Below are positions 671 through 5,614 of a stretch of 39,382 nucleotides of DNA, piece by piece. Every line of letters begins with the position of its first letter. Positions within the stretch are counted from its first letter, which is position 1. Source of the DNA: Escherichia phage LL2; sequence record NC_048063.1. One strand, given 5' to 3'. The notes under the pieces are model-generated. The model saw only the letters and a program-made list of their open reading frames with translations, ran no database searches and was not told the origin of the DNA. A program made the position numbers and the translations under genes.

Positions 671-1129
671 ATGATTTTCACTAAAGAGCCTGCTAACGTC
701 TTCTATGTACTGGTGTCAGCTTTCCGTTCTAACCTCGACGATGAGGTGAACATGAGTCGCCACCGCCACATGGTAAGCACTTTACGTGCCGCACCGGGTC
801 TTTATGGCTCCGTTGAGTCAACCGATTTGACCGGGTGCTATCGTGAGGCAATCGCAAGCGCACCGACTGAGGAAAAAACGGTTCGTGTACGCTGCAAGGA
901 CAAGGCGCAGGCACTCAATGTTGCACGCTTAGCTTGCAATGAGTGGGAGCAAGATTGCGTACTGGTATACAAGTCACAGACTCACACGGCTGGTCTGGTG
1001 TACGCTAAAGGAATCGACGGTTACAAGGCTGAACGTCTGCCGGGTAGCTTCCAAGAAGTGCCTAAAGGCGCACCGCTTCAAGGCTGCTTCACGATTGATG
1101 AGTTCGGACGCCGCTGGCAAGTACAATAA
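671..1129 (+). CDS. 0.3: S-adenosylmethionine-cleaving enzyme (SAMase, anti-restriction), T3 gene 0.3 type
   Basis: 152 aa; translation MIFTKEPANVFYVLVSAFRSNL... matches my recollection of T3 SAMase in length and sequence; first gene after A promoters; RBS TGAGGT. Confidence 0.85.
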   Translation: MIFTKEPANVFYVLVSAFRSNLDDEVNMSRHRHMVSTLRAAPGLYGSVESTDLTGCYREAIASAPTEEKTVRVRCKDKAQALNVARLACNEWEQDCVLVYKSQTHTAGLVYAKGIDGYKAERLPGSFQEVPKGAPLQGCFTIDEFGRRWQVQ

Positions 1130-1134
1130 GTGTT

Positions 1135-1185
1135 AAACTCAAGGTCGCACTGTATGTGTGGCCTTTATGATTATCACTTAGCACG
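1135..1185 (+). promoter_or_regulatory. RNase III-site hairpin repeat (second copy)
   Basis: AAACTCAAGGTCGCACTGTATGTGTGGCCTTTATGATTATCAC, near-identical to copy at 595..648. Confidence 0.45.
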
Positions 1186-1201
1186 CTACAGGACTAACAT
1201 C

Positions 1202-1402
1202 ATGAGCAAACTTCTTGCAACATCTAAAATAGAAGGCCAATGCACCGTAACACTGCGTGAGTATTACCACGGGTCAATGGGAAGCACCTACGTTGTGCGA
1301 TACGGTAAACAGGTCACGCATTGGGTAAACCCGATTTTAGCACAAGAGGATTATCAATCTTGTGTGTTACACCAAACAACATGCGCAGGGTGGAATGACT
1401 AA
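1202..1402 (+). CDS. Small early protein of unknown function (66 aa)
   Basis: ATG at 1202 directly after the RNase III hairpin; weak RBS AGGA; the longer track ORF begins with GTG inside the hairpin, so I prefer 1202. Confidence 0.45.
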   Translation: MSKLLATSKIEGQCTVTLREYYHGSMGSTYVVRYGKQVTHWVNPILAQEDYQSCVLHQTTCAGWND

Positions 1403-1605
1403 TGACTATGTTGACAATATTTGTACTCACTGTGTACACTGCGATTGTGATGTATTTCCTGAGAGACTTTAAGAACGGTCTGGTAATACGTAAAGCAACG
1501 CTGAGTTACTTTAAGTGGGGATTCATCCCACGGTTTACGGTTCGTGAACGTAACGGACGCTTTAAGGCCAATAAGGTGGGAGTATTCTACATTGCTACGC
1601 ACTAA
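1402..1605 (+). CDS. Small early protein, hydrophobic N-terminus, unknown function (67 aa)
   Basis: ATG overlaps previous stop (TAATG); MTMLTIFVLTVYTAIVMYFL is a predicted membrane segment; position equivalent to T7/T3 0.6-class genes. Confidence 0.45.
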   Translation: MTMLTIFVLTVYTAIVMYFLRDFKNGLVIRKATLSYFKWGFIPRFTVRERNGRFKANKVGVFYIATH

Positions 1606-1762
1606 CTCAAAGCACGTAAAGATTGCACTGTATGCGATGGCTTATGGTGCATCGAAACGCAAGGTCAAACGCATCTTAGCGAGACACCGCAAGATGACCG
1701 CACGACAGGCTGCAAGCGCTGTCAAATGGGCTGAATTTACTCTTTACTCTTCTTACAGATAA
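1544..1762 (+). CDS. Small early ORF of unknown function; start uncertain (GTG 1544 or ATG 1637), possibly a frameshift extension of the previous ORF
   Basis: Open frame to 1762, basic C-terminus; overlaps previous ORF in another frame; T7 0.6B is reported to arise by frameshift from 0.6A. Confidence 0.3.
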   Translation: MNVTDALRPIRWEYSTLLRTNSKHVKIALYAMAYGASKRKVKRILARHRKMTARQAASAVKWAEFTLYSSYR

Positions 1763-1776
1763 CAGGACACTGAACG

Positions 1777-2889
1777 ATGACTTTCTCCGAAGCACAAGCC
1801 GCACTTGAAGCTATCCGCAATCTACCGATTGAGCGCCTGAACGAACGCCAGCCCATGCTGGTGACTCTTGCGGCTGCCATCGTGAACGATGAGACCCAAG
1901 ACGGGCAACTGACGCAGGCAGCAGGAAACACGGCGCTAGGGCGCATGGACTACTGGCAGACCCTAGCGGCGCGTATGCGTGATGTTGGTTTCATCAAGCT
2001 GGGCAATGGTCACTTTAGCGCAGCGTATGAGCACGCATTGTTGCCGGGCAAGGTTATCAAGGTAGGCTTTAAGAAAGAGGACTCAGGCGCTGCCTATGCT
2101 GCATTCTGCCGTATGAATCAGGGCCGTGAGGGTATCCCTACGGTGTACGACATTCAGCGTCATGCTGGTTGTTACACGGTGGTTCTTGATTATCTGAATC
2201 CGCTTAACTACTGGTGCGATGGTGAGAGTGATAAGATTCGTCACCACTTTCAGGCCGCAAGGGAAATCATTGAGGAGGATTGCTTCGATACCGCCGAAGA
2301 GTACCCAATAAGTGACAGCTTTATTGAGACCTGCAAGGATATCCGCAAGTTCTTCTTAGGAATCGCATCGTTCGATTGTCACAGCGGGAACATGATGAAA
2401 GACCAGATGGGACGCCTGATTATCACAGACCCGGTATCATTCAGCGCAGGCGACAAGTTAAGGCCGGGTGAGTTCCACTGTGACCCGGATGAACTCATCG
2501 CTGAGATTGAGGTGCTGAGGGCGCAGGAGGCTATCGAGCGCTGCAAGGCACGCAAGGCTAGGCGTGACCCTAAAGGAACCTTTCAGGCAGCGCGTAAAGC
2601 ACGCATCAAGTGGCGCAGAAAGGCCTCTAAGCGCGTGAAGCGCAACGCTAAGGTACTCGCTAGGATGCGCATGGACGCCAATCAGAATCGCAGGGATGAG
2701 CCTAGGGCGCGTATGGTGTGGGGCGATAAGCACTGGCGCAACGCTTGGATGCACCACAACAACCTAAACTTTGCAGAACTGGAGCGCCGCGCTGCTGCGG
2801 CAATGATGATGATGCACGACGAGGTGCGCATTCAGTGGGGCAAACCGTTACACATAGACGCATACCTTGACAGGAGACTGCAAGGCTGA
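1777..2889 (+). CDS. 0.7: Serine/threonine protein kinase, host shut-off (gp0.7)
   Basis: 370 aa; the segment LGNGHFSAAYEHALLPGKVIKVGFKKEDSGAAYAAFCRM...GIPTVYDIQRHAGCYTVVLD closely matches T7 gp0.7 kinase domain; basic Arg/Lys-rich C-terminal tail. Confidence 0.85.
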   Translation: MTFSEAQAALEAIRNLPIERLNERQPMLVTLAAAIVNDETQDGQLTQAAGNTALGRMDYWQTLAARMRDVGFIKLGNGHFSAAYEHALLPGKVIKVGFKKEDSGAAYAAFCRMNQGREGIPTVYDIQRHAGCYTVVLDYLNPLNYWCDGESDKIRHHFQAAREIIEEDCFDTAEEYPISDSFIETCKDIRKFFLGIASFDCHSGNMMKDQMGRLIITDPVSFSAGDKLRPGEFHCDPDELIAEIEVLRAQEAIERCKARKARRDPKGTFQAARKARIKWRRKASKRVKRNAKVLARMRMDANQNRRDEPRARMVWGDKHWRNAWMHHNNLNFAELERRAAAAMMMMHDEVRIQWGKPLHIDAYLDRRLQG

Positions 2890-2959
2890 TAGAGTCTTTT
2901 CTTACAGGTCATCATTAGATGGCCTGAATAGGAACGATTTATTCACAATGAGGTAAGCA

Positions 2960-5614
2960 ATGAACATCATCGAAAACATCGAAAAGAATGACTTCTCCGA
3001 AATCGAACTGGCTGCTATCCCGTTCAACACATTGGCAGACCACTACGGTAGCGCATTGGCTCGTGAACAACTGGCTTTAGAACATGAGTCTTATGAGTTA
3101 GGCGAGCGCCGCTTCCTCAAGATGCTTGAGCGTCAGGCGAAAGCTGGTGAGATTGCAGACAACGCAGCCGCTAAGCCATTACTCGCTACGCTTCTCCCTA
3201 AGTTAACCGCACGCATCGTTGAGTGGCTCGAAGAGTACGCCTCTAAGAAGGGCCGCAAGCCTGTAGCCTACGCACCACTCCAATCACTCAAGCCGGAGGC
3301 GTCCGCGTTTATCACACTCAAGGTTATCCTTGCGTCACTGACCAGCACGAACATGACAACCATTCAGGCCGCTGCTGGTATGCTGGGTAAGGCCATTGAG
3401 GATGAGGCACGTTTCGGGCGTATCCGTGACCTCGAAGCGAAGCACTTCAAGAAGCACGTTGAGGAACAGCTTAACAAGCGCCACGGGCAAGTCTACAAGA
3501 AAGCCTTTATGCAGGTGATAGAGGCCGATATGATTGGTCGAGGTCTGCTTGGTGGCGAGGCATGGTCTAGCTGGGATAAAGAAACTACGATGCACGTAGG
3601 GATTCGCCTGATTGAAATGCTTATCGAGTCCACTGGTCTGGTGGAATTACAGCGACACAACGCAGGTAACGCAGGTTCTGACAATGAGGCACTGCAACTG
3701 GCCCAAGAGTACGTCGATGTGTTAGCGAAGCGTGCAGGAGCACTGGCTGGCATCTCTCCGATGTTCCAACCGTGTGTTGTACCGCCGAAACCTTGGGTAT
3801 CAATCACAGGTGGCGGCTATTGGGCTAACGGTCGCAGACCTTTGGCACTCGTTCGCACTCACTCTAAGAAGGGACTGATGCGCTATGAGGATGTTTACAT
3901 GCCAGAAGTTTACAAGGCGGTCAACATCGCACAGAACACCGCATGGAAAATCAACAAGAAAGTTCTTGCGGTTGTCAATGAGATTGTTAACTGGAAGAAT
4001 TGCCCGGTCGCAGACATTCCATCGCTGGAGCGCCAAGAGTTACCGCCTAAGCCGGACGACATTGACACCAACGAGGCAGCGCTCAAGGAGTGGAAGAAAG
4101 CCGCCGCTGGTATCTACCGCTTGGACAAGGCACGAGTGTCTCGCCGTATCAGCTTAGAGTTCATGCTGGAACAGGCCAACAAGTTTGCAAACAAGAAAGC
4201 AATCTGGTTCCCTTACAACATGGACTGGCGCGGTCGTGTGTACGCTGTGCCAATGTTCAACCCGCAAGGCAACGACATGACGAAAGGCCTGCTGACCCTC
4301 GCTAAAGGCAAGCCAATCGGTGAGGAAGGTTTCTACTGGCTGAAAATCCACGGTGCGAACTGTGCGGGTGTCGATAAGGTTCCTTTCCCTGAGCGCATCG
4401 CGTTCATTGAGAAGCACGTAGACGACATTCTGGCTTGCGCTAAAGACCCAATCAATAACACTTGGTGGGCCGAGCAGGATTCACCTTTCTGCTTCCTCGC
4501 GTTCTGCTTCGAGTATGCAGGCGTTGCGCACCACGGTCTGAGCTACAATTGCTCACTGCCGCTGGCGTTCGACGGGTCTTGCTCTGGTATCCAGCACTTC
4601 TCCGCGATGCTCCGCGATGAGGTAGGTGGTCGTGCGGTTAATCTGCTGCCAAGCGAAACCGTGCAGGACATTTACGGCATCGTTGCACAGAAAGTGAACG
4701 AGATTCTCAAACAGGATGCAATCAACGGAACACCTAACGAGATGATTACCGTGACCGACAAGGACACCGGGGAAATCTCTGAGAAGCTCAAGCTGGGAAC
4801 CTCAACGCTGGCGCAACAGTGGCTGGCATATGGTGTAACCCGTAGCGTAACTAAACGTTCGGTCATGACGCTGGCTTACGGTTCTAAGGAGTTCGGCTTT
4901 CGTCAACAGGTACTGGACGACACCATTCAGCCTGCGATTGACAGCGGTAAGGGCTTGATGTTCACCCAACCTAACCAAGCGGCTGGCTATATGGCTAAGC
5001 TGATTTGGGACGCGGTGAGCGTGACCGTAGTCGCAGCGGTTGAGGCGATGAACTGGCTAAAGTCTGCCGCCAAGCTGCTGGCTGCTGAGGTCAAGGACAA
5101 GAAAACCAAGGATATTCTGCGCCACCGTTGCGCGGTTCACTGGACTACGCCGGACGGCTTCCCGGTCTGGCAGGAATACCGCAAGCCACTCCAGAAGCGT
5201 CTCGATATGATTTTCTTAGGGCAATTCCGTCTGCAACCGACGATTAATACCCTCAAGGATTCAGGCATTGACGCGCACAAGCAGGAGTCTGGCATCGCTC
5301 CTAACTTTGTTCACTCACAGGATGGTAGCCATCTACGCATGACAGTCGTTTATGCTCACGAGAAGTATGGCATTGAGTCCTTTGCGCTCATCCATGACAG
5401 CTTTGGGACTATTCCGGCAGACGCTGGTAAGCTCTTTAAGGCTGTGCGTGAAACGATGGTTCTCACCTACGAGAACAACGATGTGCTGGCAGACTTCTAT
5501 GACCAGTTTGCAGACCAGCTACACGAGACCCAACTGGACAAGATGCCTCCGCTTCCGAAGAAAGGAAATCTGAACCTGCAAGACATTCTCAAGTCTGACT
5601 TTGCCTTTGCATAA
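2960..5614 (+). CDS. 1: Single-subunit DNA-dependent RNA polymerase (gene 1)
   Basis: 884 aa, same length as T3 RNAP; start MNIIENIEKNDFSEIELAAIPFNTLADHYG and end ...HSQDGSHLRMTVVYAHEKYGIESFALIHDSFGT...DFAFA are T7/T3 RNAP hallmarks; promoters in the window are T3-type. Confidence 0.97.
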   Translation: MNIIENIEKNDFSEIELAAIPFNTLADHYGSALAREQLALEHESYELGERRFLKMLERQAKAGEIADNAAAKPLLATLLPKLTARIVEWLEEYASKKGRKPVAYAPLQSLKPEASAFITLKVILASLTSTNMTTIQAAAGMLGKAIEDEARFGRIRDLEAKHFKKHVEEQLNKRHGQVYKKAFMQVIEADMIGRGLLGGEAWSSWDKETTMHVGIRLIEMLIESTGLVELQRHNAGNAGSDNEALQLAQEYVDVLAKRAGALAGISPMFQPCVVPPKPWVSITGGGYWANGRRPLALVRTHSKKGLMRYEDVYMPEVYKAVNIAQNTAWKINKKVLAVVNEIVNWKNCPVADIPSLERQELPPKPDDIDTNEAALKEWKKAAAGIYRLDKARVSRRISLEFMLEQANKFANKKAIWFPYNMDWRGRVYAVPMFNPQGNDMTKGLLTLAKGKPIGEEGFYWLKIHGANCAGVDKVPFPERIAFIEKHVDDILACAKDPINNTWWAEQDSPFCFLAFCFEYAGVAHHGLSYNCSLPLAFDGSCSGIQHFSAMLRDEVGGRAVNLLPSETVQDIYGIVAQKVNEILKQDAINGTPNEMITVTDKDTGEISEKLKLGTSTLAQQWLAYGVTRSVTKRSVMTLAYGSKEFGFRQQVLDDTIQPAIDSGKGLMFTQPNQAAGYMAKLIWDAVSVTVVAAVEAMNWLKSAAKLLAAEVKDKKTKDILRHRCAVHWTTPDGFPVWQEYRKPLQKRLDMIFLGQFRLQPTINTLKDSGIDAHKQESGIAPNFVHSQDGSHLRMTVVYAHEKYGIESFALIHDSFGTIPADAGKLFKAVRETMVLTYENNDVLADFYDQFADQLHETQLDKMPPLPKKGNLNLQDILKSDFAFA

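Follow-up and report, generated by a model that had tools for sequence, protein, structure and literature searches.

Evidence that three small early genes of Escherichia phage LL2 are T3-type genes 0.45, 0.6 and 0.65, the last probably started at a UUG codon

Introduction

In phage T7, the genome position that concerns us here holds gene 0.4 (an FtsZ inhibitor), gene 0.5, gene 0.6A (an MreB inhibitor) and a "possible gene 0.6B". Kiro and colleagues reportedly found in 2013 that T7 gp0.4 acts on FtsZ. An interaction between T7 Gp0.6 and MreB is cited in two sources (10.64898/2026.09.14.751387; PMC5624674).

The closest described counterparts of the LL2 genes are in phages T3, phiYeO3-12 and phiSG-JL2. 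T3 genes 0.6 and 0.65 (NP_523298 and NP_523299) stand in the same order between the genes for the S-AdoMet lyase (SAMase) and the protein kinase as in LL2, with the same 14-nt overlap; T3 is without gene 0.45. In the phiYeO3-12 and phiSG-JL2 records, the same three ORFs appear as 0.45, 0.6A and "0.6B, putative +1 frameshift", the last joining 0.6A to the third ORF. In a phage group that has been studied very thoroughly, these genes belong to the part that is understood least. Our literature search found no functional study of T3-type 0.45, 0.6 or 0.65, and the sequences were absent from those supplements of the accessory-gene screen of Silas et al. that were searched.

The window analyzed here is the whole 39,382-nt stretch of the LL2 record NC_048063.1. 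An initial annotation of it, made from the letters alone, noted three small ORFs between the SAMase and kinase genes and proposed them as candidates for undescribed anti-defense or host-modulating factors. The reading that we favor, with moderate confidence, is that they are three separately translated, translationally coupled T3-type early genes, 0.45, 0.6 and 0.65, carried on the kinase mRNA.

Layout of the region and its early mRNA

LL2 is a T3-like phage with relatives in the genus Teetrevirus. Positions 1100-1800 of the window share 97.7% DNA identity with Yersinia phage vB_YenP_AP5 and 94.4% with phiYeO3-12, both members of that genus. Three plus-strand ORFs tile positions 1202-1762 (Table 1), exactly where the initial annotation had placed them, and the lengths that it gave for the first two (66 and 67 aa) were borne out. 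Nei-Gojobori dN/dS values indicate purifying selection on ORF1 (0.08, nine unique sequences), ORF2 (0.14, 68 sequences) and ORF3 (0.23, 16 sequences). By this comparison, all three are conserved protein-coding genes.

Table 1. Features of the LL2 early region (positions in the window)
Feature	Position	Strand	Basis
Gene 0.3, SAM lyase (SAMase), left boundary	671..1129	+	PF23780 S-AdoMet_lyase, E 2.5e-42; phrog_2226
RNase III-type hairpin R0.45, putative 5' end of the 0.45-0.6-0.65-0.7 mRNA	1127..1180	+	-21 kcal/mol, z -3.5 vs shuffles
ORF1, gene 0.45, 66 aa, ATG start	1202..1402	+	phrog_6500; identity to CAC18561; dN/dS 0.08
ORF2, gene 0.6 (0.6A), 67 aa	1402..1605	+	phrog_2385; dN/dS 0.14
Shine-Dalgarno-like AAGGTGGGAG within the 3' end of gene 0.6	1573..1582	+	Sequence reading; 9 nt before UUG 1592
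ORF3, gene 0.65, 56 aa, probable UUG 1592 start	1592..1762	+	T3 RefSeq annotation; YP_009812316; phrog_10380; start-codon/cargo association
Gene 0.7, protein kinase, right boundary	1777..2889	+	phrog_2828, E 3e-174
RNase III-type hairpin R1, putative 3' end of the 0.45-0.7 mRNA	2887..2945	+	-23.1 kcal/mol, z -4.7

Stable hairpins flank the group formed by the three ORFs and the kinase gene, and a further one at 590-645 is the equivalent of R0.3; z-scores for R0.3, R0.45 and R1 run from -3.2 to -4.7. LL2 has the same RNase III site R0.45 as phiYeO3-12 and phiSG-JL2, in whose records the equivalent stem-loop is annotated, and RNase III sites, R1 among them, are annotated in relatives. Because the hairpins at 1127-1180 and 2887-2945 correspond to RNase III sites, ORF1-3 and the kinase would share one processed early mRNA. 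Genes 0.45, 0.6 and 0.65 would then be read from an RNase III-cut early transcript that also encodes the 0.7 kinase, which agrees with the class I (early) location that had been assigned to them. A sigma-70 promoter-like match (TTGACA-N18-TACACT, 10/12) lies at 1411-1440, just within the start of gene 0.6; T3 and T7 do not keep it, and it is probably due to chance.

The three ORFs are already catalogued, as genes 0.45, 0.6/0.6A and 0.65/0.6B in the T3, phiYeO3-12 and phiSG-JL2 records, so that "undescribed" was not the right word for them. The corresponding PHROG families (6500, 2385 and 10380) are all filed as unknown function. Apart from the way in which ORF3 is started, the three genes are ordinary.

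Gene 0.45 and its association with the SAMase

Gene 0.45 starts at an ATG with AGGA 8 nt upstream. Its product is 100% identical to the phiYeO3-12 "putative 0.45 protein" CAC18561 and matches phrog_6500 over its full length (E 3e-44, residues 1-66 of 66). It is a soluble protein of pI 6.8, with a predicted fold of four β-strands and then a C-terminal helix, on which C54-x2-H57-x3-C61 lies (AF2 pLDDT 67.5).

When the family profile was searched against 1.84 billion representatives with a cut-off of E ≤ 0.001, 29 proteins were recovered. All were 60-120 aa long except two (3,076 and 357 aa), in which only short repeated stretches matched. Alignment of the 27 small proteins with the LL2 protein showed Y34, G35, A47, H57 and C61 to be invariant, with a C-x2-H-x3-C helix face. 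All of the aligned relatives match PHROG 6500 and most also match 20418; searched against Pfam, members of this superfamily alignment had no family match. The distant members are found in arrays of small early genes in other T7-like phages, and one of these members lies upstream of the RNA polymerase gene, close to a gene for an Acb2/Tad1-hairpin protein.

Gene 0.45 was present in 12 of 46 SAMase-bearing loci and in none of the 16 without a SAMase (Fisher p 0.03-0.05, on data that are non-independent). In all 12 it lay directly downstream of the SAMase homolog, and these SAMases include some that are just 37-38% identical to the one in LL2. This suggests a SAMase plus 0.45 module, although T3 carries the SAMase alone. 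The superfamily could represent a new counter-defense or SAM-pathway accessory factor that partners the SAM lyase.

Three further loci bear on the composition of this part of the genome. The AP5 GenBank record annotates 0.6 and 0.65 and leaves out 0.45, yet the ORF is present (L002, 1548-1745) and its protein is 97% identical. In phiSG-JL2, an unannotated hydrophobic ORF of about 52 aa (MVIFIAVALFAVAGWY...) lies between 0.45 and 0.6 (L003, 1768-2182). In a locus with a KP32-type gene 0.6 (L115, 1130-1342), a 70-aa gene with a faint match to Pfam Phage_T7_GP04 stands upstream of 0.6. Since a different gene occupies the place that 0.45 has in LL2, the slot upstream of 0.6 also appears to be exchangeable.

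Gene 0.6

The ATG of gene 0.6 overlaps the stop codon of gene 0.45 as TAATG. Gp0.6 is 100% identical to the LL2 "putative transmembrane protein" and matches phrog_2385 (E 2e-26; 126 related clusters), with the tail PRFTVR..NGRFKANKVG..ATH present. Relatives of the gene, in more than 120 clusters, come from phages of Escherichia, Klebsiella, Yersinia, Pectobacterium and Erwinia, and gene 0.6 appears to be near-universal in LL2's phage group. It was found in every locus retrieved with gene 0.6 as the query, a selection from which its prevalence is not measurable.

The hydrophobic N-terminus that had been noted on one ORF belongs to gp0.6 (Kyte-Doolittle 19-residue maximum 2.04, residues 2-20). 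The same residues are predicted to form a transmembrane helix, with no flanking charge on the N-terminal side. The tail is basic, with 11 K/R against 2 D/E and a net charge of +9, so by the positive-inside rule the N-terminus is predicted to be outside and the C-terminal tail cytoplasmic. Among 29 relatives, down to 56% identity, 18 tail positions are invariant, including P43, R44, T46, R48, N51-K55 (NGRFK) and N57-G60 (NKVG); the membrane segment varies freely.

With its near-invariant tail and broad conservation, gp0.6 probably acts at the inner membrane, on a host component that is itself conserved. A variable defense system would be the less likely target on this pattern.

T7 gp0.5, like LL2 gp0.6, is a small uncharacterized early protein with a putative transmembrane helix. 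An N-terminal likeness to it (MTMLTI, against MYMLTI in T7 gp0.5) is supported neither by the DNA nor by a shared promoter element, and we set it aside. The phiSG-JL2 0.6A protein has a 12-residue internal duplication (RGLAIHKATLSYFK twice).

Initiation of gene 0.65

ORF3 lies in the +1 frame relative to gene 0.6, with an open frame that runs from 1544 to 1762; both remaining frames of this stretch are interrupted by stops in all 16 sequences. GenBank annotates it in three incompatible forms: a protein of 40-42 aa, one of 55-56 aa, and a frameshift fusion of 119-131 aa. The initial annotation left its length at 41-72 aa. On the plus strand the candidate starts are GTG 1544 (72 aa), TTG 1592 (56 aa) and ATG 1637 (41 aa), and the comparative data favor 56 aa.

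The LL2 RefSeq protein YP_009812316 is this same 56-aa form. T3 0.65 is 55 aa long and is annotated as "gene 0.65 protein, UUG start codon", the same start as UUG 1592 of LL2, and the T3 junction DNA TACATTGCTACGCACTAA is identical to that of LL2. Gp0.65 matches phrog_10380 (E 1e-32) and falls into one 90%-identity cluster with the T3 protein. It is basic (pI 11.4) and is predicted with an AF2 pLDDT of 87 to be a three-helix bundle (residues 6-17, 22-32 and 37-55). Matches to "glucocorticoid receptor" at E 0.06-0.5 were judged to be a chance helix match.

UUG is a weak start codon. In LL2, TTG 1592 sits 11 nt before the stop codon of gene 0.6, which gives the two genes an overlap of 14 nt. We collected 77 junctions after gene 0.6 from IMG/VR and reference phages and compared those with and without a cargo gene before the kinase. 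Where 104-443 nt separate the 0.6 stop from the kinase (n = 47), an ATG is found at -14 in 40 loci. The other seven form a single clade (T3, phiYeO3-12, AP5, phiSG-JL2 and LL2), with ACA at -14 and TTG at -11. Where the kinase follows within 47 nt of the 0.6 stop, none of the 13 loci has a start codon at -14. The sampled loci are phylogenetically related, and these counts are not independent events. The -14 ATG precedes at least six unrelated types of cargo; the types seen were 0.65, a 0.65-like gene of about 90 aa, "YRDKHG", two HNH-endonuclease-like ORFs, a Bro-like gene, a T7 0.6B-type tail and a 27-aa hydrophobic ORF.

One relative of 0.65, 76% identical to that of LL2, starts at the -14 ATG, and its junction DNA differs solely in reading TATGTC where LL2 has TACATT. 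This near-identical junction indicates that the start was shifted by one codon in the T3 clade. The gene remains intact and constrained in the UUG clade (dN/dS 0.27, eight unique sequences).

Every cargo-bearing locus has both a start codon and a Shine-Dalgarno-like sequence. In LL2 the latter (1573-1582) forms a duplex of -8.3 kcal/mol with the 16S 3' end, and values are similar in relatives without a downstream ORF. We considered Shine-Dalgarno strength as a discriminator between the two junction classes and rejected it because of this similarity. Because the N-K-V-G codons of gene 0.6 determine the sequence, which is just as strong where cargo is lacking, only the start codon discriminates between the hypotheses. 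From these comparisons, the 3' end of gene 0.6 reads as a Shine-Dalgarno-like sequence and a start codon for the following gene. We are fairly confident that ORF3 is gene 0.65, a 56-aa protein begun at UUG 1592. Ribosomes would start it there, within the last 14 nt of gene 0.6, and no +1 "0.6B" fusion would be made.

Several Klebsiella, Pantoea and Salmonella phage records instead imply a 41-aa protein from ATG 1637, and we consider this form very improbable. ATG is the strongest start codon, and 40-42-aa versions have been deposited for several relatives. However, no Shine-Dalgarno sequence precedes 1637, and the 15 codons upstream of it are conserved as protein in relatives that have the -14 ATG. 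Those codons also form the predicted helix 1 (residues 6-17; pLDDT 94 at residues 11-20), so a protein begun at 1637 would be incomplete.

A second alternative, improbable but slightly less so, is that ORF3 has no start of its own and is the C-terminal half of a 119-aa "0.6B" made by a +1 shift at the 0.6 stop (CAC-U-AAC). In the records of phiYeO3-12 and phiSG-JL2 the two are joined into one CDS, noted as a putative +1 frameshift, with an annotated junction in which ...FYIATH is followed directly by NSKHVK.... The T7 RefSeq "possible gene 0.6B" shows the same geometry, the canonical -14 ATG is missing from the T3 clade, and decoding could be slowed by the stop codon there. LL2 also shares with +1 frameshifting in prfB a stop codon at the proposed shift site and a Shine-Dalgarno-like sequence upstream.

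The likeness to prfB goes no further, as the LL2 junction has no re-pairing P-site codon, the wrong Shine-Dalgarno spacing, a site that varies among relatives and an available start codon for the downstream ORF. In prfB-type shifting, a tRNA-His on CAC cannot re-pair on ACU. CAC-U-AAC is thus without re-pairing potential, and there is no other slippery codon in the roughly 24 nt to which a +1-frame stop in phiYeO3-12-type genomes confines any shift. In prfB, about 3 nt separate the Shine-Dalgarno sequence from the shift codon that follows it; the Shine-Dalgarno-like sequence of LL2 ends 15 nt before CAC 1600-1602. Among relatives, the His codon (CAC/CAT), the stop (TAA/TGA) and the next base (C/T/A/G) all vary. 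ACG-CAC-TRA junctions are common among them, and the conserved gp0.6 C-terminus ...ATH accounts for this conservation as well. The junction has no significant RNA structure (z -1.5), and neither an Rfam family nor an RNA structure was found at the 0.6/0.65 junction. All 120 clusters of gp0.6 relatives listed, of 126, are 57-93 aa long, with no in-frame 0.6-0.65 fusion among them. Start codons go with cargo ORFs: every junction that has a cargo ORF has one, and those without cargo have none. In the T3 record, the curators annotated a separate gene that begins at UUG. The comparative data favor a separate gene over the joined product of the phiYeO3-12 and phiSG-JL2 records.

The end of T7 gene 0.6A has the same architecture (...TATG....ACGCACTGA), with an ATG 14 nt before the stop. 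With this -14 ATG, the T7 "possible gene 0.6B" could be a separate gene too. The T7 0.6B ORF (locus L004, T7 800-3300; locus positions 836-1173) shows an apparent 1-nt indel relative to another locus (L074), whose tail ...ERAAWHRRKEKVKAQKLAALEQAL... T7 has in another frame.

Possible functions

The initial annotation could assign no function to the three ORFs, and our searches came to the same result: Pfam, NCBIfam, PHROG annotation and PDB sequence and fold searches were all uninformative. Neither single sequences nor family profiles of the three proteins matched anything in Pfam, NCBIfam or the PDB, and no sequence or fold match was found to known anti-defense families in Pfam or the PDB. 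None of the three products is large enough for an enzyme, so they are most likely binders, which would block host proteins or nucleic acid stoichiometrically.

Position invites comparison with the cytoskeleton inhibitors of T7. It is quite unlikely, in our estimate, that the LL2 genes are functional analogs of T7 gp0.4 and gp0.6, which act on FtsZ and MreB, and would halt host division or elongation. They do share the location between an anti-restriction gene and the kinase, the gene with the faint Phage_T7_GP04 match occupies LL2's 0.45 slot in one relative, the interaction of T7 Gp0.6 with MreB is on record in the sources given above, and a gp0.6 anchored in the membrane as predicted could reach the elongasome or divisome. 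Against this, the three family HMMs gave no significant match to T7 gp0.4, 0.5, 0.6A or the 0.6B tail (best E 0.09-0.4 in a 10-sequence database), and a Pfam scan of the LL2 proteins had no match to PF26807 (T7 gp0.4). As no homology to the T7 early proteins was detectable, the T7 functions cannot be transferred to LL2, and the shared label "0.6" appears to denote position only.

We favor a division of the three genes into two kinds, a conserved and predicted membrane-anchored 0.6 and the exchangeable accessory genes 0.45 and 0.65. The slot after gene 0.6 has several alternative occupants, gene 0.65 among them, and gene 0.45 is sporadic. Both behave as exchangeable accessory genes, the pattern expected of host-range or counter-defense factors. 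Gp0.45, which travels with the SAMase, and gp0.65, from an exchangeable slot, would be accessory factors of this kind, and the two genes are sensible candidates for host-range or anti-defense effects.

The initial annotation went further, reasoning from position that they may be anti-defense factors. That at least one of the three proteins is a dedicated anti-defense factor is possible, and we regard it as doubtful. Gp0.45, for instance, could act together with the SAMase to counter restriction or BREX-type systems, and gp0.65 could be an inhibitor of a defense that targets nucleic acid. The exchangeability of 0.45 and 0.65 is consistent with such roles; the conservation of gp0.6 points elsewhere. 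The initial annotation also held that a deletion with no phenotype on any host would speak against its reading. Kiljunen and co-workers are said to have deleted phiYeO3-12 genes 0.3-0.7 in 2005 with no plating defect on laboratory hosts. That outcome would speak against the reading by this criterion, for those laboratory hosts only. Taken as a whole, the initial reading is partly supported.

The practical outcome is a cleaner annotation, in which the conflict between 0.65 and 0.6B is resolved by comparison toward the 56-aa form. The finding is an ordinary one and holds no surprise for specialists.

The junction after gene 0.6 as a common initiation site

A by-product of the comparison is the 3' end of gene 0.6 as a common initiation site for swappable cargo. 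The junction (1573-1605 in LL2; loci L034-L107) is a mosaic hot spot that holds at least seven different inserts, or none. Its shared pattern is ...AAYAARGTNGG...TATG...ACNCAYTRA, with the in-frame -14 ATG only where an insert is present. The last 35 nt or so of gene 0.6 could serve as a "docking" cassette, made up of the Shine-Dalgarno-like sequence, the start codon and the 0.6 stop, for interchangeable cargo genes of T7-like phages. If this is true, the 40-year-old T7 "possible gene 0.6B" frameshift annotation would be retired. The combined proposal, that gp0.45 is a new SAM-lyase-linked counter-defense or SAM-pathway factor and that the end of gene 0.6 is a docking cassette for cargo genes, is speculative and on balance unlikely to hold in full.

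In a contig like that of Pectobacterium phage PP74 (L017/L104), an ORF starts like 0.65 (MSQLINGKHVTKALRAMG...) and ends like the C-terminus of the kinase (...IDKLLDARFQG). The sequence suggests that a deletion of most of gene 0.7 fused 0.65 to the end of the kinase.
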